A stretch of 64,000 nt of DNA from Candidatus Berkelbacteria bacterium (lineage in GTDB: Bacteria > Patescibacteriota > UBA1384 > XYA2-FULL-43-10 > 1-14-0-10-43-13): the NCBI GenBank assembly GCA_037143235.1, contig JBAWZC010000001.1, forward strand, positions 1,132 to 65,131, in the 5' to 3' direction. This document shows positions 2,706 to 32,046 of the stretch, in pieces; the stretch's first letter is position 1; each line of letters opens with the position of its first letter. The position numbers were made by a program, and so were the translations under genes. A model generated the notes under the pieces. It was not told the DNA's origin, searched no databases, and saw only the letters and a program-made list of their open reading frames with translations.

Positions 2706-2836
2706 GATCACATCCCCTCTCGCAAAAAGATTTGATAAAAATAGACATAATAATTATATCTCCTTACCCGAGACTTAGCAACAAAAGAAATCCCCAAATC
2801 TATTATTCTAGCGACAATGAATAATTACGCGCTGTT

Positions 2837-2866
2837 TGTCATTCCGGACCACGATCCGGAATCTAT
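2837..2866. repeat. Solo palindromic element of the TGTCAT family (tgtcattccggaccacgatccggaatctat).
   Basis: TGTCAT terminus followed by an 8-bp stem (attccgga/tccggaat) and a ctat tail, as in the inverted repeats flanking the GIY-YIG genes. Confidence 0.55.
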
Positions 2867-21216: not shown

Positions 21217-21321
21217 AATAAATTCCTTTATTCCCCCTCCTAAGATAGGAGGGGCTAGGGGTGGTATGACTGAATTGTTTTTCACAATTTATTCTCTTCT
21301 TTTGTCGCGCCAATCCTTTTT

Positions 21322-21678
21322 TGTCATTCCCGCGCAGGCGGGAATCCACCAATAGCCACCTCCTAATTTTTATTCAAGTAAGTCTTTCCACCCAGGATTG
21401 CTTTGCTCAATCAACTTTATTTTCCAAACCCTATTCCACTTTTTAAGACGCTTTTCTCTAAGAATTGCCTCAGTCACATCAGATGTTTCTTCGAAGTAAA
21501 CAAGTTTTTTGGCTCCATATTTTTCAGAAAAACCGTTTGTAATTTTATCTTTATGCTCATTCGTTCGCTTCTCTAAATTTGATGTCACCCCCACATACAA
21601 TGTTCCATTCAAACGACTTGCCAATATGTATACAAAGTATTTTTTCATTTGTGGATTCCCGCCTGCGCGGGAATGACA
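21322..21678. mobile_element. Palindrome-flanked GIY-YIG cassette: 28-bp perfect IRs (tgtcattcccgcgcaggcgggaatccac at 21322-21349; reverse complement at 21651-21678)
   Basis: The IRs are exact reverse complements and each is itself a hairpin (ttcccgcg/cgcgggaa). The GIY-YIG ORF fills the space between them. Confidence 0.75.
21370..21648 (-). CDS. GIY-YIG nuclease family protein (92 aa)
   Basis: YFVYILASRLNGTLYVGVTSNLEKRTNEHK GIY-YIG motif; about 80% identical to the copy at 28464-28742 and about 45% to that at 13206-13493. Confidence 0.75.
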   Translation of the reverse strand: MKKYFVYILASRLNGTLYVGVTSNLEKRTNEHKDKITNGFSEKYGAKKLVYFEETSDVTEAILREKRLKKWNRVWKIKLIEQSNPGWKDLLE

Positions 21679-23065: not shown

Positions 23066-23087
23066 ATTCCTCCTTGTAAATATTTAA

Positions 23088-23160
23088 TTATTTTAATACA
23101 TCAACCCCTGGCAGCTCTTTCCCTGCCAAAAACTCCAGTGCTGCTCCACCACCAGATATT
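23088..23160 (-). repeat. Diverged duplicate of the pgk 3' end (repeat R3), still encoding ISGGGAALEFLAGKELPGVDVLK-stop
   Basis: About 85% nucleotide identity to the native pgk terminus at 24349-24421. The frame-preserved translation is nearly identical to the Pgk C-terminus. Confidence 0.7.
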
Positions 23161-24003
23161 TTATTTATCGTCCAATAATATATTATCCTGTTTGGCAACA
23201 AATTTATACTTACTGACTACCAGTCTGCCGGTTTTTGACTCTATTTCTTTTCTGGCATGACCGGCAATAGTCCCGCCTTCCTTTGCCACTTGACGGTTTT
23301 CTGGTAAGTCTTTGGGCTTACGCTTCTCTGATATTTCTGTGGTCGCTGTTTCAGCCAACATATTCAAGACCAATTCCAGATTGGTCATATTGTCGCGTAA
23401 ATTTTCTTTTTTCAGATTTTTATAATTCTTGTATTCTCGTGTACCCATTCCCGCCCAAGCCAGAGTGATATCGTCAGTTAAAATGGCAAATTCATCGCCC
23501 CTTTTCACGCCGCGTTTTTCCCATTCATCGGTCAGGGCCTTTCGGATTTCAATACTTTTTAGTCGTTGATTTATCCAGCTCTCGCTGTAACCTTTTTTCA
23601 GATATGTATTTAACGCTCGGTTGATCGCTAGCTCCGGATCATGGGTCTCTTCGATCCGCTCGTATCCAACTCGTGCCAACCAGAGCTTAAAAGGCTCGGC
23701 ATTTGGCGAAGGAACCGATTGAATCAAGCGAAGTAATACTTCTGTATCAGCGACATCAGTTAGGCGCATCTTGCCATCCATAGCAAACATCTTCAAACCG
23801 TGACAATTTGTCACGGTTTCATTCCCGCCCTCTTTCTTCATCCTCTCTTTTAGCTTTCTCCAATACGCAAGAGGATCGACACTTCTCGTCAATGCCGCGA
23901 CCACATCAACAACCGAAAAATACCACTTTTCCTCTTTCTCGTCCCAGTGGCGACGAATTTTATTACCTTCAAAAATTGCAATCTTTTTAACTTTTTTACT
24001 CAT
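23161..24003 (-). CDS. DinD-like DNA-damage-inducible protein (N-terminal BRO-N/KilA-N-like domain)
   Basis: The N-terminus (KIRRHWDEKEEKWYFSVVDVVAALT) resembles BRO-N. The C-terminal half (FAILTDDITLAWAGMG...KNLKKENLRDNMTNLELVLNMLAETATTEI) parallels E. coli DinD (FAIFQNHGYQGLYGG...KGLKKNQKILDHMGSTELAANLFRATQTEE). Confidence 0.6.
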   Translation of the reverse strand: MSKKVKKIAIFEGNKIRRHWDEKEEKWYFSVVDVVAALTRSVDPLAYWRKLKERMKKEGGNETVTNCHGLKMFAMDGKMRLTDVADTEVLLRLIQSVPSPNAEPFKLWLARVGYERIEETHDPELAINRALNTYLKKGYSESWINQRLKSIEIRKALTDEWEKRGVKRGDEFAILTDDITLAWAGMGTREYKNYKNLKKENLRDNMTNLELVLNMLAETATTEISEKRKPKDLPENRQVAKEGGTIAGHARKEIESKTGRLVVSKYKFVAKQDNILLDDK

Positions 24004-24010
24004 TCCGTTA

Positions 24011-24088
24011 CTATTTTAATACTTCAATGCCTGGTAAAGTTTTGTCAGCTAAGAGCTCTAGTGCTGCCCCACCACCGGTCACAGAGAA
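24011..24088 (-). repeat. Diverged duplicate of the pgk 3' end (repeat R2), encoding FSVTGGGAALELLADKTLPGIEVLK-stop
   Basis: Protein-level conservation of the Pgk C-terminus with many nucleotide substitutions relative to the native end. Confidence 0.7.
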
Positions 24089-24301: not shown

Positions 24302-24348
24302 CCCTCTCCTGTTTTCTTTATGAACTTTATGACTTTATAAACTTTTAA

Positions 24349-25491
24349 CTATTGCAATACTTCGATCCCTGGCAGCTCTTTTCCGGCCAAAAACTCTAGC
24401 GCTGCCCCACCACCGGTTGAGATAAAGGTAATATTTTTGTCCAAGCCCTGTGACTTGACGAAACCAACTGTATCACCGCCAGCAATCACTGTTTCGGCGT
24501 TAATATTGCTCAACGCCTCAGCAACCACCCTTGAGCCATTGGCATATTCGTTATCTTCAGTATAACCCAAATTACCGTTCCAAAATACTGTTTTTACCCC
24601 TGAAATAATATCGACATACTTTTTCTGCGTCTCGGCACCAATATCAAGTATCTTGCCATTATTTCTGACAAAGTCTGTCGGCAAAACTATCTTCTCTCCA
24701 TACTTTTTAAGTATTTCCTTACACCTCTCGACCATTGTCTCATCATAAACCGAATCACCAATATTTAGACCGCTTGCTTTCAAAAAGGTATTAGCTACTC
24801 CTCCGCCCAACAAGATTTTGTCGACTTTGGGTGCTAAAAATTCGATCACGCCAGCTTTGTCCTCTATTTTCACGCCCCCAATGATCAAAATGAACGGCAA
24901 TTTTGGTTCCGTCATCACTTTAGTAAGTTCAGAAATTTCTTTTTGAATCAACAAACCCGCATAACCTGGCAAAAATTTTGTAATTGCGTGCACCGAAGCA
25001 TTGGCACGATGTGAGACGGCAAAAGCATCATTTATATAAATATCCTGCCCAGCCGCAAGCTCTTTGGCATATTCCTCGTCGTCTTTTTCTTCGCCAGAGT
25101 TGAATCTTAAATTTTCAAGCAACATCACTCTCTCATTCAATTCAAACCTTTCAGCTGGTCCATCAAATTTTTTATCAATATTTAACTTTTCAGCCAATCT
25201 GTTCGCAACTGGCCACAAACTAAATTCCGAATTATTTTTCCGCGTCGGCCTGCCCGCCTCATTTTGCGAAGCAATTTGGGCGGGCTTACCTAGATGAGAC
25301 CCAATAGTGATCTTGCTTGCTCCATTTTCCAACAAATAATTAATCGTCGGTAAAGCCGCATCAATACGATTATCATCCGCAATACTGTTTTCTGTTTTCT
25401 GTGTGCTGTTCACTGAATTCATCGGCACATTGAAATCCACGCGCAGGAAGATATTTTTACCTGCAATTTCCGCTTGCTCAATTGTTTTCAT
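24349..25491 (-). CDS. pgk: Phosphoglycerate kinase
   Basis: Canonical PGK motifs (RVDFNVPM, GGGA...LE at the C-terminus). Start at ATG 25489-25491 with SD-like GGGAAGTGG; the track start was GTG. Confidence 0.9.
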   Translation of the reverse strand: MKTIEQAEIAGKNIFLRVDFNVPMNSVNSTQKTENSIADDNRIDAALPTINYLLENGASKITIGSHLGKPAQIASQNEAGRPTRKNNSEFSLWPVANRLAEKLNIDKKFDGPAERFELNERVMLLENLRFNSGEEKDDEEYAKELAAGQDIYINDAFAVSHRANASVHAITKFLPGYAGLLIQKEISELTKVMTEPKLPFILIIGGVKIEDKAGVIEFLAPKVDKILLGGGVANTFLKASGLNIGDSVYDETMVERCKEILKKYGEKIVLPTDFVRNNGKILDIGAETQKKYVDIISGVKTVFWNGNLGYTEDNEYANGSRVVAEALSNINAETVIAGGDTVGFVKSQGLDKNITFISTGGGAALEFLAGKELPGIEVLQ

Positions 25492-25603: not shown

Positions 25604-26485
25604 ATGAATGTGATTGAAACAAAAAAACTAACCAAGTACTATCTAGGACGCAAAGTTCTTGGGATTAAGAACCTTGACCTCGAGGTGAAAGAAGGAGAGA
25701 TTTTTGGTTTTATTGGTCCAAACGGTGCTGGCAAATCAACTACTATCCGATTGCTTTTGGATCTAATACGCCCCACCTCTGGTGATGCTAAAATTTTTGG
25801 CAAAGATGTAAATAAATTAACCGTATCAATAAAAGAAGAAGTTGGATATTTGCCCGGAGAGATTTTTCTCGATGACGGCATTACTGGTGAAGAGTGCTTA
25901 AATTATTATAAAGGGTTCAAGAAAAACATCGACCACAAGTATCTAAACAGTTTGATCAATCGTTTTGATTTTTCTGTTGATAAAAAAGTTAGAGATTATT
26001 CCAAGGGAAACCGTCAGAAATTGGCAATAATCCTAGCACTGATGCACAAACCAAAGCTTTTAATACTAGACGAGCCAACCTCCGGGCTAGACCCACTAAA
26101 CCAACAAGAATTTTTCAAAGTTTTAAAAGAGACACAGAAAACGGGAACTACTACATTCCTTTCGACTCATATTCTCGATGAAGCCAATCGCATATGTGAT
26201 CGCGTGGGAATCATCAAGTCTGGCGAGTTAATCAGCATTGAGAACATCGATGACTTCAGAAAGAAAAATATTCGCGACATCGATATTACCACCAGTACGA
26301 CTATCCCTCTCTCGCACTTTAAAATCGATGGTATCACCAAGGTAGCGAGAACTACCTCCGGATATCATCTGTCTGTGGCTGGCCCAGTAACAAAAATATT
26401 GGAAGAAATTTTGAAACACGATATAAGCGATATTGATATCACAAAACCAACACTAGAAGAGATATTTATCAGGTTCTACAGATGA
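25604..26485 (+). CDS. ABC transporter ATP-binding protein (ABC-2 exporter type)
   Basis: Walker A GPNGAGKST, signature and Walker B LILDEPTSGLD; 293 aa. Confidence 0.85.
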   Translation: MNVIETKKLTKYYLGRKVLGIKNLDLEVKEGEIFGFIGPNGAGKSTTIRLLLDLIRPTSGDAKIFGKDVNKLTVSIKEEVGYLPGEIFLDDGITGEECLNYYKGFKKNIDHKYLNSLINRFDFSVDKKVRDYSKGNRQKLAIILALMHKPKLLILDEPTSGLDPLNQQEFFKVLKETQKTGTTTFLSTHILDEANRICDRVGIIKSGELISIENIDDFRKKNIRDIDITTSTTIPLSHFKIDGITKVARTTSGYHLSVAGPVTKILEEILKHDISDIDITKPTLEEIFIRFYR

Positions 26486-27276
26486 AAAATATAGTATTAT
26501 TTCAAATCAAAAAACAATACAAAAGCGTTTTGGTATACCTAGCCGCTTTGGTTGGATTTGCGTGGATGTATATCTCACTCTTTCCATCAATGCAAAAAAT
26601 TGATATCGAAGCCATGATGTCCCAATTACCCAAAGAATTTCTTGGCTTTTTGGGCGAAGGTGGTGGTTCCGCATACAATACCATCGAAGGATTTTTATCG
26701 GTAGAGTTCTTTTCCTTTTTCTTTGTTCTGTTGATTGGATTTTATGTGTCATCTGTTGCCGGAGCGGCTATCGCCGGCGGTATTGAGAGAAGAACTATGG
26801 ATTTCGAACTCTCTCAACCAGTTTCCAGAACGAAAAAATTACTTTCAGAAACTTTTGTTGCAATTATTTTTTCTATTCTGATTGTCACCGCTGCCAACCT
26901 TATGATCAAATTGCTATGTGTGATTTACAACATTGATATTTCCAGCAAAGGATTGTTTTATTTTAGTATACTTGCCTCTTTATTCTCCATGGCCATATAT
27001 GGCATCGCCATCTTTTTATCATCCATAGTCAGATCCAAGATGTCTGTGGTGGGGATCACACTCTTTTTTACACTCGGTTCATATGTTTTTTATTCACTGT
27101 CATTGGCGGTTGAAAAGATAAAAGATTTTGGCAAATTCACCCTTTACTATCTCTATGACCCACAGAAAACATTGAGTAGAGCCGAACTTAATCTCGACCA
27201 TTGCTTAATCCTGCTATTTATTTTCATCCTCGGCACGATAACTGCTCTAATTATTTTTAACAAAAAAGACGTCTAG
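26482..27276 (+). CDS. ABC-2 family transporter permease (6 TM)
   Basis: Overlaps the upstream ATPase gene by 4 nt; multiple TM helices. Confidence 0.7.
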   Translation: MKNIVLFQIKKQYKSVLVYLAALVGFAWMYISLFPSMQKIDIEAMMSQLPKEFLGFLGEGGGSAYNTIEGFLSVEFFSFFFVLLIGFYVSSVAGAAIAGGIERRTMDFELSQPVSRTKKLLSETFVAIIFSILIVTAANLMIKLLCVIYNIDISSKGLFYFSILASLFSMAIYGIAIFLSSIVRSKMSVVGITLFFTLGSYVFYSLSLAVEKIKDFGKFTLYYLYDPQKTLSRAELNLDHCLILLFIFILGTITALIIFNKKDV

Positions 27277-27337: not shown

Positions 27338-28339
27338 CTAGTGTTGCCAAGTTGCAGCCAAAGTCGCCATATCTATCAGTCTCTCGCTGTAACCCCACTC
27401 ATTGTCATACCAAGCAATAATTTTTACCAAATCGCCATCTACGATTTGAATCAAAGGCAAATCTACTATCGAGGAATAAGTTGAACCGATCAGATCAGAC
27501 GAGACAATTTCCTCATCGCTAACCGCCAAGATACCTTTCATCTCATCCTGAGAATATTTAGTAAAGGTTTCGGTTAATTCATCAATTGTTACTTTTTTCT
27601 TCAACAAAACAGTCATGTCAGCCAGAGAAACCACTGGCGTTGGCACTCTGATAGCCAAACCATCGAACTTTCCTTTGAGATCCGGAATTGTTTTGTAAGC
27701 TGCTTTGGCTGCCCCCGTCGAAGTCGGAACGATATTTAGGGCAGCGGATCTAGCTCGACGCAAATCTTTGTGTGGCCCATCCACCAGATTTTGGTCACCA
27801 GTATATGAATGTACCGTTGTCATCAAGGATTTTTCGACGCCCCAAGCATCATTTAAAATTTTCATCACGGGAGTAATACAGTTTGTCGTGCACGAAGCAT
27901 TAGATATTATTTTTTCCCCTTTATATTCCCTATCATTCACTCCCATCACAAACATTTTTACCTCATCATCTTTTGGCGGCGCTGAGATGACTACTTTTTT
28001 TGCCCCAGCAGCAAGATGTGCTTCACAGTCTGCTTTTGTCAAAAAATACCCAGTTGATTCAATCACTACATCTACCTTGAGCTCACGCCAAGGCAATTTT
28101 GATGGATCTTTTTCGCAATAACAATGAATCCTGTGACGATCGACAATAATATCACCCTCATCAAAACCAACTTCATGTTGCCAGACTCTGTAAACACTGT
28201 CGTATTTGAGCAAATGAGCCATCGTCTCGACATCACCCAGATCATTAACAGCCACAAGCTCAACATCATCTCGCTCAAAAATTATTTTCGCAGCCGCTCT
28301 ACCGATCCGACCAAAACCATTTATTGCGATACGAATCAT
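27338..28339 (-). CDS. gap: Glyceraldehyde-3-phosphate dehydrogenase
   Basis: NGFGRIGR NAD-binding motif and ASCTTNC active site. Start at ATG 28339 (GGAGGT SD). Confidence 0.9.
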   Translation of the reverse strand: MIRIAINGFGRIGRAAAKIIFERDDVELVAVNDLGDVETMAHLLKYDSVYRVWQHEVGFDEGDIIVDRHRIHCYCEKDPSKLPWRELKVDVVIESTGYFLTKADCEAHLAAGAKKVVISAPPKDDEVKMFVMGVNDREYKGEKIISNASCTTNCITPVMKILNDAWGVEKSLMTTVHSYTGDQNLVDGPHKDLRRARSAALNIVPTSTGAAKAAYKTIPDLKGKFDGLAIRVPTPVVSLADMTVLLKKKVTIDELTETFTKYSQDEMKGILAVSDEEIVSSDLIGSTYSSIVDLPLIQIVDGDLVKIIAWYDNEWGYSERLIDMATLAATWQH

Positions 28340-28418
28340 ATTTACCTCCATCAGTTAATTTTCATTGATGGACTATCTGCCATCACCCAATTTACTTTGT
28401 CATTCCCGCACCCTTATT

Positions 28419-28773
28419 TGTCATTCCCGCGCAGGCGGGAATCCACAAAAAGTCAACTCATAATCATTCAGTCAAATCTTTCCATCCAGGATTATTTTCT
28501 TCAATCAATCTTATTTTCCAAATTCTATTCCATTTTTTAAGACGTTTTTCTCGAAGTGATGCCTCGTGAATATCTGTCGTTTCTTCAAAATAGACAAGTT
28601 TGCTTACTCCGTATTTCTCAGAAAAACCATCAGCGATTTTATCTCGGTGTTCGGTTGTCCGTTTCTCTAAATTTGATGTTACTCCGGTATACAATGTTCC
28701 GTTGAAATGGCTCGCCAGTATGTAAACATAATATTTTTTCATTTTGTGGATTCCCGCCTGCGCGGGAATGACA
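28419..28773. mobile_element. Palindrome-flanked GIY-YIG cassette with the same 28-bp IRs as the 21322 copy (28419-28446 and 28746-28773), plus an adjacent partial IR at 28398-28413
   Basis: IRs are identical to those of the 21322-21678 element. Inserted between gap and tpiA. Confidence 0.75.
28464..28742 (-). CDS. GIY-YIG nuclease family protein (92 aa)
   Basis: YYVYILASHFNGTLYTGVTSNLEKRTTEHR; paralog of the 21370-21648 gene. Confidence 0.75.
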   Translation of the reverse strand: MKKYYVYILASHFNGTLYTGVTSNLEKRTTEHRDKIADGFSEKYGVSKLVYFEETTDIHEASLREKRLKKWNRIWKIRLIEENNPGWKDLTE

Positions 28774-28783
28774 GAAATCTCAT

Positions 28784-29518
28784 CTATTTCAAACTTCGTG
28801 CATCACTCCAATCTTTGCACAATTTAATAAATTCACTCGCTCTCAAACTTGCGCCACCGACCAACAAACCGTCGATCTCAGGTCGCTTGGCATATTCTAA
28901 AACATTACTTGATTTGACACTACCGCCATAAATAATTGCCGTTTCGGCATCAACAAATTCACGCAACTTGTTACAAACTTTGGCGACATATTCTGCTTCA
29001 GCATTCTCCCCAGTGCCGATAGCCCAAACTGGTTCGTAAGCAATAATAATATCTTTGAAATGTTTTTTGGGAATTCCCTCCAACGCCTCACGAAGCTCTT
29101 TGACCGGTTCAACAATATTATTTTTCTCTTTTCTCTCTCCAACGCAAATGATCGGGATCAGTCCTGCGCGCAAAGCAGAGATTGTTTTTTCATTTACATC
29201 ATGATCTGTTTCACCGAAATATTCACGACGCTCAGAGTGACCGATGATAACATAATCAGCAACTTCCTTGATCATCGTCGGCGAAATCTCCCCCGTATAT
29301 GCCCCCTCGGGCTCGTAGAACATATTTTGGGCACCCAAAGAGATCTTTTTGTTACCAATGATTTGTTTCACCTCCGACAACCAAATTGATGGCGGACAAA
29401 GCACGACTTCAACACTACCAATCCCCGATAAACCATTTCTGACTTCAGTTGCCAAAACATGAGCATCGGAAATCCCCATGTTCATTTTCCAATTCGCAAC
29501 CACGATAGACTTCTTCAT
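28784..29518 (-). CDS. tpiA: Triosephosphate isomerase
   Basis: ANWKMN, IAYEPVWAIGTG and GGSV motifs; SD-like GGAGGGG before ATG 29518. Confidence 0.9.
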   Translation of the reverse strand: MKKSIVVANWKMNMGISDAHVLATEVRNGLSGIGSVEVVLCPPSIWLSEVKQIIGNKKISLGAQNMFYEPEGAYTGEISPTMIKEVADYVIIGHSERREYFGETDHDVNEKTISALRAGLIPIICVGERKEKNNIVEPVKELREALEGIPKKHFKDIIIAYEPVWAIGTGENAEAEYVAKVCNKLREFVDAETAIIYGGSVKSSNVLEYAKRPEIDGLLVGGASLRASEFIKLCKDWSDARSLK

Positions 29519-29576
29519 TTTCCCCTCCAAGCTATATTATTTGCGCGTCAAGTACGACACGCCAGACCACGAACGA

Positions 29577-30615: not shown

Positions 30616-32046
30616 TTAATCAAAAAGATCCTTTACCTGTTTTTTTCGATGATAGGATATAGCAAAACGATGCGCCTCATCCCTTGCTCGTATCAAGACT
30701 CTTTGCAATGTTTGGTTTGTTTTAATAAATACCGCAATTTTATCATCAGAAAATCGCAAATCATTTCTTTTTCTCTCGGCGCCCTTTGCAATTGCCACCA
30801 CGGGGATGTCTTTGCCAAGCTCCGTAAGCAATAACTTCACAATATTCAACTGCGATTGTCCCCCGTCCAAAACGATCAAATCAGGCAGTGGCCAATCATT
30901 TTTCATTCTTCGCTCAATCACATCTCTCATCCAATAAATATCACCTACTCGCTTGTCATCCCCAGATTCACTATTTTTTGTCATCCCCGATCCAGTCGGG
31001 GATCCATTAATAGCTTTCCCCACTTCACTAAAGTTACGAGGGGCAGGGTGGATTCCCGCCTCCGCGGGAATGACAGAAACGGGAAACTGTTTTCCGTTTT
31101 CTGTTTTCTGTAAACTAAACATCCGATAATCGTCCTTGCTTGCTTTTCCGTCTACAAAAACGACCATCGAACCAACGACATTTTTTCCAGATATATTCGA
31201 AATATCATAACACTCGATTCTCTTGAAGCCAGCGACTGATTGATCGACCAATTCATCCGACAAGCCCACCCCCACATCTCGAAGGTGCTGTAGCGCTCTG
31301 ATCTTGTCCCGAACCAACGCTGCCTCCTCGTATTTTGATTTGGCACTTAGTTTCGCCATCTCCTTTTCAAGGTCGGCAAAAAGCTTCTGTTTTTTGTTTT
31401 GCAAATATTTGACCAAATAGCCAATGTTCTTCTGGTAATCTTTTTCGTCAGTAAAATCGGCGCAAGGCGCACTACAAACTCGGATCTCGCCGAAGATACA
31501 TGGCCTTTTTTGCCTTTGCTGAGACGCAAACTTTGTCTTGGAACAGTCACGATATGGAAAGATCTTGCGTAGATATCTCAAAGCATTTTTCAGCAAATCG
31601 CCTGAAGGATAAGGGCCAAAATATATCGCCGATCGATCAGAAAAATCCACATTTCTCGATCGTACCAGTTCAACCATCGAGAACGATCCAGCTCGGTCAA
31701 CTTGAGATTTAGAATTTAAAATTCTACGAGTTATCTTTATCACCAAAAAGCTTTTGTCGTCCTTGGCTCTGATATTATATTTCGGCTTAATCTTGTTGAT
31801 CAGCTCTGCCTCGAGCAAAATTGCTTCAATCTCAGAATCAGTCTCAACGGTCACGACCTTGTCGGCTAGCTCCACCATCTGAATGATGCCAACCCCTCTG
31901 TCTAGTGTACTCAAAAAATATTGACGGATGCGATTGCGCAAGTTCTTTGCTTTGCCGATATACAAAATCTTCCCTTTGACATCCAGAAACTTATAGACGC
32001 CAGGAGAACTTGAGATTCCACTAAAATTTATCGAACTTTTATTCAT
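30616..32046 (-). CDS. uvrC: Excinuclease ABC subunit C (UvrC), short form ending right after RDEAHRFAISYHRKK (no C-terminal (HhH)2 domain), with an in-frame insertion of about 50 aa
   Basis: N-terminal GIY-YIG (GVYKFLD...ILYIGKAKNLRNRIRQYF), a Cys cluster, UVR domain, RNase-H-like ECYDISN...YRMF and DIYWMRDVIERR...LIVLDGGQSQL...RDEAHRFA. The TGTCAT-family hairpin plus heptamer repeats at 30943-31095 are translated in-frame (…IPAEAGIHPAPRNF…). Confidence 0.8.
   Translation of the reverse strand: MNKSSINFSGISSSPGVYKFLDVKGKILYIGKAKNLRNRIRQYFLSTLDRGVGIIQMVELADKVVTVETDSEIEAILLEAELINKIKPKYNIRAKDDKSFLVIKITRRILNSKSQVDRAGSFSMVELVRSRNVDFSDRSAIYFGPYPSGDLLKNALRYLRKIFPYRDCSKTKFASQQRQKRPCIFGEIRVCSAPCADFTDEKDYQKNIGYLVKYLQNKKQKLFADLEKEMAKLSAKSKYEEAALVRDKIRALQHLRDVGVGLSDELVDQSVAGFKRIECYDISNISGKNVVGSMVVFVDGKASKDDYRMFSLQKTENGKQFPVSVIPAEAGIHPAPRNFSEVGKAINGSPTGSGMTKNSESGDDKRVGDIYWMRDVIERRMKNDWPLPDLIVLDGGQSQLNIVKLLLTELGKDIPVVAIAKGAERKRNDLRFSDDKIAVFIKTNQTLQRVLIRARDEAHRFAISYHRKKQVKDLFD
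30943..31095. repeat. TGTCAT-family palindromic elements plus a (CTGTTTT)n heptamer repeat embedded in-frame in uvrC
   Basis: Contains cttgtcatccccagattcac, ttgtcatccccgatccagtcggggatcca (stem ccccga/tcgggg), gtggattcccgcctccgcgggaatgaca (the 28-bp IR with one substitution) and ctgttttccgttttctgttttctg. Confidence 0.65.

Follow-up and report, generated by a model that had tools for sequence, protein, structure and literature searches.

What is the short gene that lies between tpiA and gap in the glycolytic gene cluster of a Candidatus Berkelbacteria bacterium, and why is it enclosed by inverted repeats that recur, together with a related gene, within 7 kb of it? The locus belongs to a 64,000-nucleotide (nt) stretch of contig JBAWZC010000001.1 (assembly GCA_037143235.1, positions 1,132 to 65,131 of the forward strand), here called the window, in which it had originally been predicted to be the second copy of a cassette built from 28-bp inverted repeats and a GIY-YIG gene. 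We consider it highly probable, from the comparisons described below, that the gene encodes a nuclease of the Ssn family and is flanked by the SRM hairpins which that family recognises. The locus is a further example of the known Ssn/SRM system, in a host of the candidate phyla radiation (CPR), and is no new kind of system by itself.

An Ssn-type nuclease gene and its hairpin repeats

The Ssn family, described by Chenal et al. (Nat Commun 2025; PMC11893778), consists of single-domain, site-specific GIY-YIG endonucleases that act on single-stranded DNA (ssDNA) only. Its member in Neisseria meningitidis, SsnA, has 94 amino acids (aa), belongs to CDD cd10448 (GIY-YIG_unchar_3) and carries the catalytic residues Y6, Y17 and E64. 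The target is an oriented 28-nt hairpin repeat, called SRM generally and NTS in Neisseria, which is bound only as ssDNA and is cut a few nt upstream of the repeat on the same strand, the reverse strand remaining uncut; for cleavage and binding the most important bases are the GTC ahead of the palindrome and the C that follows it. Binding and cutting of one strand of ssDNA have been established for four homologs, double-stranded DNA (dsDNA) is not acted on by the characterised homologs, RNA is not bound by SsnA, and ssn genes are typically flanked by the repeats (PMC11893778). The window contains two cassettes with this layout:

28464-28742, minus strand: ssn copy 2, encoding a 92-aa single-domain GIY-YIG protein (Pfam PF01541, E 9e-14)
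28746-28773, minus strand: SRM/NTS-like hairpin repeat upstream of ssn copy 2, reading TGTCATTCCCGCGCAGGCGGGAATCCAC on the gene strand, 3 nt 5' of the ATG (exact match, SRM pattern, folding)
28419-28446, plus strand: SRM/NTS-like hairpin repeat downstream of ssn copy 2, inverted, 17 nt 3' of the stop codon (exact match, SRM pattern, folding)
21370-21648, minus strand: ssn copy 1, encoding a 92-aa protein, between fba and a pfkB-family kinase gene (Pfam GIY-YIG, E 8e-16)
21651-21678, minus strand: SRM upstream of ssn copy 1, 2 nt 5' of the ATG (exact match, SRM pattern)
21322-21349, plus strand: SRM downstream of ssn copy 1, inverted (exact match, SRM pattern)

The predicted second cassette is thus borne out by four exact arms and two GIY-YIG open reading frames (ORFs) that are 79% identical as proteins and 76-77% identical as DNA. 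The repeat TGTCATTCCCGCGCAGGCGGGAATCCAC (28 nt) occurs without mismatch at each of the four arm positions in the 64 kb, where dinucleotide-preserving shuffles of the window give an expectation of 0.00 matches, and a fifth copy with one mismatch lies at 31048-31075 (minus strand); in total the window holds 5-7 SRMs. Around ssn copy 2 the inverted repeat extends to 32 nt with 100% complementarity and its arms are 291 nt apart, and every arm is a hairpin in itself, with a calculated ssDNA folding energy of -11.8 kcal/mol (z -4.6; -10.4 to -11.8 kcal/mol for the SRM at 28746-28773). The published SRM pattern, HGTCWYN(0-2)YYVSBRHN(0-5)WNVSBRGN(0-2)RNCYNB, is present in 4/4 arms, with 0.18 chance matches expected in 64 kb, and both ssn copies have at least one SRM within 500 bp on their 5' and 3' sides, as members of the family typically do. 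Compared with the Neisseria NTS consensus CGTCATTCCCGCGMAVGCGGGAATCYRG, the window repeat agrees at 26/28 positions, the mismatches being the first and last base, and it retains both the GTC 5' of the palindrome and the C 3' of the stem. The inverted repeats of the original prediction are therefore present, but as the cognate SRM/NTS recognition hairpins of the Ssn family (PMC11893778) and not as generic transposon ends.

The proteins agree with this assignment. The Pfam GIY-YIG match spans residues 3-75 and no other domain is found in the 92 aa, as expected of a single-domain protein of less than 150 aa. The product of copy 2 is identical to a protein already recorded under the name Candidatus Berkelbacteria. 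The comparator was the 94-aa gonococcal ortholog of SsnA, taken from a Neisseria gonorrhoeae chromosome filed wrongly as a plasmid in PLSDB, to which copy 2 is 54% and the other copy 51% identical in gapless alignments (pairwise E values of 6e-34 and 6e-33); a tblastn search against the N. gonorrhoeae ORF gave E 2e-23 at 54% identity, well below the E < 1e-10 that the published study used for SsnA homology. Residues Y7, Y18 and E65 of the window proteins align with Y6, Y17 and E64 of the ortholog and are invariant among 120 homologs, in which the C-terminal signature KKW.R.WK...NP.W.DL is likewise invariant or nearly so. A search of the domain library revealed only the GIY-YIG domain in the cassette and no recognised transposase (DDE, HUH/Y1, serine, tyrosine or DEDD), PADLOC returned no match, and the NCBIfam matches of the ssn products were all below threshold. 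It is the combination of the 26/28 match to NTS, the SRM pattern, the homology to SsnA and the Y/Y/E residues that leads us to read the cassette as an Ssn/SRM module.

Similar cassettes occur in other lineages. Homologs that are 63-70% identical are found in Patescibacteria, Planctomycetia, WS5 and one metagenome-assembled genome, and homologs that are 44-62% identical on replicons of Azospirillum, Rhizobium, Aeromonas, Planktothrix and Novosphingobium. Their neighbourhoods differ at each locus and their orientation is usually that of the neighbouring genes. At most of these loci a forward SRM lies 3-13 nt (or further) 5' of the ATG and an inverted SRM at most about 40 nt 3' of the stop codon; the downstream SRM is 3-5 nt from the stop in two cases (L100, L103) and overlaps it in another (L102). 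The 25-nt core of the repeat at the WS5 locus (L103) is the same as in the window, while other loci show compensatory stem changes (ACACCCGC/GCGGGTGT, ATCCCCGC/GCGGGGAT and ATCCCAGGGC/ACCCTGGGAT), which indicates that the hairpin itself is conserved. The hairpin scan detected no SRM at the Planktothrix or Novosphingobium ssn loci, and an exact-sequence scan of viral contigs did not find the SRM. For example, plasmid AZO_p3 of Azospirillum lipoferum 4B (L107, 255112-256184) carries a 61%-identical ssn homolog between sufB and sufC, with one SRM doublet of ATCCCCGC/GCGGGGAT stems on each side; judging by gene order, this cassette appears to split a conserved operon pair much as the window cassette splits tpiA and gap. 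As a separate observation, the 54%-identical homolog on plasmid p1 of Planktothrix agardhii (L109, 18447-19516) lies between an MmeI-type restriction-modification gene and the DISARM gene drmA.

These data also bear on the idea that the gene is a free-standing GIY-YIG homing endonuclease gene, which would cut dsDNA at tpiA-gap junctions devoid of the cassette and be copied in by repair, the repeats being incidental. Its intergenic position between conserved genes would fit, and the products do match phage homing-endonuclease families in PHROGs (E about 4e-4) and the group I intron endonuclease model TIGR01453, although these matches are weak, lie at the level of the GIY-YIG motif only and, for TIGR01453, reach 18-26 bits against a cutoff of 56. 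The 92-aa protein has no DNA-binding domain, its characterised homologs are inactive on dsDNA, and the same repeats accompany homologs at unrelated sites, which would not be expected of an enzyme specific for tpiA-gap, and are also present without the gene. We therefore regard homing as very improbable.

Under the Ssn reading, a mechanism can be proposed from the published biochemistry of the homologs. SRM DNA that becomes single-stranded during replication, repair or the uptake of transforming DNA would fold into the ATTCCCGC-GCAG-GCGGGAAT hairpin, which Ssn would bind through both sequence and structure, with the C after the stem and the GTC before it as key bases. The enzyme would then nick the hairpin strand a few nt 5' of GTCA. 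With the GTCA ends of both arms pointing outward, the predicted nicks fall just beyond the ends of the cassette, one on each strand, near 28415/28416 (plus strand) and near 28776/28777 (minus strand). We infer that the module modulates restriction or recombination of SRM-bearing ssDNA.

Divergence of the two copies and insertion between tpiA and gap

The original prediction took the duplication to be recent to moderate in age. This was not confirmed: copies 1 and 2 differ at a proportion of synonymous sites (pS) of 0.70, corresponding to a saturated synonymous divergence (dS) of about 2, their identity at third codon positions is 58%, and their ratio of nonsynonymous to synonymous divergence (dN/dS) is 0.06. 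Saturated synonymous sites together with so low a ratio indicate that the copies are old and that both are maintained by selection. The two are reciprocal best hits in a collection of 5.8 billion proteins, the next best matches being 68-70% identical, and on this sequence evidence they are best described as old, lineage-specific paralogs under purifying selection. Near-identical copies such as an insertion sequence would leave were not found in the 64 kb of genome available (77% DNA identity, pS 0.70).

The repeats have behaved differently from the genes they enclose. All SRM bases are identical between the cassettes (56/56), and by our own arithmetic the chance of this at the third-position rate is 0.58^56, or about 6e-14; set against the saturated synonymous sites, such identity cannot be neutral. 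The perfect identity of the repeats thus points to strong constraint, not youth, as far as can be judged from sequence, and invariance of the repeat is what a protein recognition site predicts. Gene conversion was considered as the main cause of the identical repeats and rejected, since identity between the cassettes does not reach further than a few bases from each arm, and since WS5 and Neisseria conserve the same core.

The genes on either side of ssn copy 2 are the following:

28784-29530, minus strand: tpiA (triosephosphate isomerase), the upstream neighbour; its stop is 10 nt from the SRM and its likely true start is the ATG at 29518
27338-28351, minus strand: gap (glyceraldehyde-3-phosphate dehydrogenase), the downstream neighbour; its likely true start is the ATG at 28339, with GGAGG 5' of it

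Read on the gene strand from tpiA to gap, the layout is a 10-nt spacer, SRM, 3 nt, ssn, 17 nt, SRM, 7 nt, a half SRM and a spacer of about 57 nt, so that about 445 nt separate the tpiA stop from the gap ATG at 28339. The Gap protein that begins at this ATG was not on record in an exact-protein look-up. A metagenome scan with TpiA retrieved six relatives with conserved synteny, their genes running uvrC, cofD-like gene, tpiA, gap. The stop codon of tpiA overlaps the start codon of gap as ATGA in L081, L082, L084 and L086; the spacing of the two genes is about 16 nt in L085 and 5 nt in the Kerfeldbacteria locus L014, and none of these loci carries the cassette at this junction. L083 has a tpiA-gap spacer of 300 nt, which holds an unrelated 99-aa membrane ORF and neither cassette nor SRM. 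A scan of GTDB species representatives with Gap gave a best match of 60% and no close relative, and hence information on synteny only, in the form of the 5-nt spacing at L014. The single near-identical contig (L112, positions 2296-2331, from Logan SRR7053653), retrieved by an exact-protein look-up with TpiA, has the same repeat at the same place; this short independent assembly is identical to the window and stops inside the SRM just after tpiA, and so gives no information on polymorphism. Assemblies typically break at repeated sequences, as this one does.

Because tpiA and gap of the relatives either overlap or are separated by 5-16 nt, with no cassette between them, the window cassette appears to be a derived insertion that splits an overlapping, translationally coupled gene pair. 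This agrees with the original prediction that the cassette interrupts an otherwise contiguous pair, and the finding that was to count against mobility, the same sequence at the orthologous gap-tpiA sites of relatives, did not appear in the six, distant as they are. The proposed alignment of cassettes and flanks was carried out and revealed no target-site duplication or flanking direct repeat at either cassette, so that this mark of an insertion sequence is lacking. For the other cassette, the pfkB-family gene directly follows fba in L084.

The promoter, terminator and Rfam searches gave no match at the cassette. Given this result and the orientation that ssn shares with its neighbours, the gene is probably transcribed together with them. 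The shared orientation with tpiA and gap, and the position of the upstream SRM 2-3 nt from the ATG, where an RNA hairpin could affect translation, would also suit another view, namely that the repeats are ordinary regulatory hairpins of the glycolytic operon (terminators, attenuators or mRNA stabilisers) and the ORF an unrelated housekeeping protein of the UPF0213/YhbQ type. We hold this to be very improbable, since no T-run or terminator-like site was found at the cassette, the solved UPF0213 proteins 1ywl and 1zg2 match the ssn product at E 0.06-0.07 only, the same operon exists in relatives without the hairpins, the repeat accompanies the gene across phyla, and SsnA does not bind RNA.

Other observations concern the cluster as a whole. 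Three copies of the final ~21 codons of pgk occur, 69-83% identical (23074-23153, 23997-24076 and 24335-24414): the true pgk 3' end and, beyond it, two relics, each of them preceded by an inserted gene, one being a 67-aa membrane ORF and the other a gene for a 280-aa Bro-N-domain protein (23161-24003). In L084 fba directly follows pgk. From their arrangement, the copies look like the result of serial insertions at the pgk 3' end. In L084 gap and pgk are neighbours; in the window an ABC-transporter gene pair in opposite orientation (25604-27276) stands between them. Compared with the related gene orders, the glycolytic cluster thus seems to be interrupted at several junctions beyond the two ssn cassettes. 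A 9-bp perfect inverted repeat ccctcctaagataggaggg at 21230-21252, between the start of the pfkB-family gene and cassette 1, includes the likely AGGAGG ribosome-binding site of that gene.

Repeats without the gene

SRMs are also found in the window away from ssn:

31048-31075, minus strand: SRM with loop GGAG, one arm of a gene-less inverted doublet in uvrC; 1 mismatch to TGTCATTCCCGCGCAGGCGGGAATCCAC, encodes ...VSVIPAEAGIH...
30979-31007, plus strand: variant SRM TGTCATCCCCGATCCAGTCGGGGATCCAT, the other arm of the uvrC doublet, with compensatory stem changes; encodes ...GSGMTK...
2836-2866, plus strand: solo intergenic variant SRM, TTGTC ATTCCGGAC cacg ATCCGGAAT C, with paired, compensatory stem changes relative to the canonical repeat
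28396-28409, plus strand: half SRM TTTGTCATTCCCGC, corresponding to the repeat's outer 5' half, the same 14 nt as 28417-28430 of the full copy, with no 3' stem arm of its own

The uvrC doublet (30979-31075) lies in frame within uvrC (30616-32046, minus strand), in the region of the RNase H-like endonuclease domain, and adds about 40-45 aa (…VSVIPAEAGIH…GSGMTKN…) that four related UvrC proteins lack. Two Berkelbacteria-like contigs, L082 (2676-2741) and L093 (412-498), have another in-frame SRM doublet, with a 16-nt spacer, at a different uvrC site, after FLVIKITRK; this doublet was not found in the window, L084 or L086. Doublets at different sites of the same gene indicate that SRM units were gained independently at different places in this group.

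Measured from start to start, the half SRM lies 21 nt upstream of its counterpart at 28417-28430 and does not fold alone in DNA folding calculations. The original prediction had a 16-nt partial inverted repeat at 28398-28413; such a partial copy does exist, but the string quoted for it is 17 nt long (28397-28413) and only TTTGTCATTCCCGC at 28396-28409 matches the repeat. The same arrangement, a half SRM, about 10 nt and a full SRM, recurs elsewhere, with an offset of 21 nt in the window and of 19 and 24 nt in N. gonorrhoeae. In L093 it takes the form of a perfect 21-nt tandem duplication, TTTTACCTCTGTCATTCCCGC twice, made of the outer SRM half and 10 nt of flank and read in UvrC as GNDRGKS twice; the related contig L082 does not have it. 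At its 3' edge the duplicated unit ends with the final base of the 5' stem arm. That the half repeat is a footprint of a previous insertion or an aborted event, as first proposed, is possible, but the recurrence at 19-24 nt, the edge at the stem arm and the perfect tandem in L093 fit local duplication better. These sequences are therefore better read as the outcome of a local duplication that recurs at the hairpin, involves about 21 nt and may arise by slippage or by nick repair. In the window duplication 5/10 flank bases are identical and 11/11 SRM bases intact, which hints at constraint on the half SRM. Since a repeat divided into two halves is still able to direct cleavage (PMC11893778), it is conceivable that the half site pairs alternatively with the 3' arm at 28435-28442. 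Taken together, the gene-less doublets and half copies appear to have spread and been rearranged locally in this lineage.

Possible mobility and known systems

Do these cassettes move? One may suppose that cassette and gene-less doublets together are an active mobile element, comparable to RAYT/REPIN or IS200/IS605 but driven by a GIY-YIG enzyme: Ssn would nick ssDNA hairpins to excise or copy the unit, and the half SRM would be a by-product. The layout of inverted repeats around a nuclease gene is indeed like that of an insertion sequence, and a mobile-element origin of the Ssn module was raised by the authors of the family description, as a hypothesis only (PMC11893778). The cassette is missing at the tpiA-gap and fba-pfkB junctions of relatives, homologs occupy unrelated contexts across many phyla (e.g., sufB/sufC in Azospirillum), and in-frame uvrC doublets stand at one site in the window, at another in L082 and L093, and at none in L084 and L086. 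The lack of a target-site duplication would agree with ssDNA elements of the 'peel and paste' type, and the perfect 21-nt duplication at the SRM end in L093 with ongoing rearrangement. Against this, the two copies are 77% identical as DNA with saturated synonymous sites and so give no sign that anything moved recently in this genome, hydrolysis of DNA by GIY-YIG nucleases involves no covalent intermediate, and we know of no strand-transfer or ligation activity for Ssn. As the repeat is not cut on its reverse strand, inverted arms would give one nick per strand, where freeing a strand would take two. SRMs number only 5-7 in 64 kb, the exact SRM is not found in viral contigs, and empty sites are known from distant relatives only. 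We regard an active element as possible but doubtful.

A more general form of the idea is put forward just as tentatively, namely that the SRM-ssn-SRM cassettes and gene-less doublets are truly mobile in CPR bacteria and form a class of GIY-YIG-based transposable elements that depends on ssDNA hairpins. Such elements would be functionally parallel to RAYT/REPIN, would land at operon junctions and in frame in genes such as uvrC, and would leave duplications of ~21 nt as the scar of Ssn nicking and repair.

Several points also weigh against the reading that we prefer, an Ssn/SRM module inserted between tpiA and gap. The protein comparison was made with the gonococcal ortholog, identified by its length and Y6/Y17/E64, and not with the meningococcal protein (NMV_0044) of the published study. 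The predicted cleavage positions are extrapolated from Neisseria and Wolbachia homologs, whose own positions differ by at least 1 nt, and the role of Ssn outside Neisseria was left by the authors to be elucidated (PMC11893778). The relatives with empty sites are distant, with TpiA 54-68% identical.

What the locus contributes is a clean case from a CPR bacterium with a reduced genome, in which the cassette breaks an overlapping tpiA/gap junction, along with old paralogs that share the same hairpin, in-frame uvrC doublets at differing sites and a recurrent 21-nt end duplication. Comparative observations of this kind are needed for deciding whether Ssn modules are, or once were, mobile elements. 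Ssn is a potentially useful family of ssDNA nucleases, and a repeat nearly identical to that of Neisseria, paired with proteins only about 54% identical to SsnA, makes the window enzymes candidates for studies of specificity.

Among known systems, RAYT/REPIN (PMC2817692, PMC3116915, PMC3333891) likewise has one small nuclease gene between inverted hairpin repeats, a repeat that is also dispersed as inverted doublets, no target-site duplication, and a repeat and protein that appear to co-evolve. In the window, too, hairpin repeats are inverted around the gene and dispersed as inverted doublets; however, its enzyme is a GIY-YIG hydrolase with no known covalent-intermediate chemistry and not an HUH/Y1 transposase, the Y1_Tnp domain being absent from the ssn product, and its repeats lack the GTAG/CGTC tetranucleotide tag. 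The IS200/IS605 elements (TnpA Y1, ssDNA 'peel and paste') resemble the cassette in the recognition of subterminal ssDNA hairpins, in cutting shortly 5' of the hairpin and in leaving no target-site duplication, but their ends are not inverted repeats, both cuts fall on one strand and the enzyme belongs to another family. The dRS3/NIME arrays of Neisseria share the identical core ATTCCC-N8-GGGAAT and have full and partial copies side by side, whereas copy number and clustering are far lower in the window and no association with surface-protein genes was seen there. Rickettsia palindromic elements are palindromic repeats that sit in frame in protein genes without destroying them, as the uvrC SRM doublets do. 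Rickettsia is also listed among the SRM-rich genera (PMC11893778). GIY-YIG homing endonucleases (I-TevI, Seg) and UPF0213/YhbQ-Slx1 proteins share the GIY-YIG catalytic fold, but the homing enzymes carry DNA-binding domains and cut dsDNA, and the UPF0213 structures are as remote from the ssn product as described above.

The closest counterpart is the Ssn/NTS system of N. meningitidis (PMC11893778), which shares a single-domain GIY-YIG protein of about 92-94 aa with Y/Y/E catalytic residues, an oriented 28-nt hairpin repeat (26/28 positions), a gene flanked by inverted repeats, and repeats that also occur away from the gene. It differs in its host, Candidatus Berkelbacteria (Patescibacteria/CPR) being a group that the text of PMC11893778 does not mention, and the window has two diverged paralogs within 7 kb and few repeats in 64 kb, compared with hundreds per Neisseria genome. 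Repeat doublets are found here within a coding gene, a location that is rare for NTS in N. meningitidis (2% intragenic; PMC11893778). The direction of the GTCA ends, outward or inward, was considered as a basic difference from Neisseria and dropped, as in Neisseria and Azospirillum the gene simply stands between two SRM doublets; the gonococcal and Azospirillum loci carry a repeat doublet per side, and the window a single repeat per side with its GTCA end outward.

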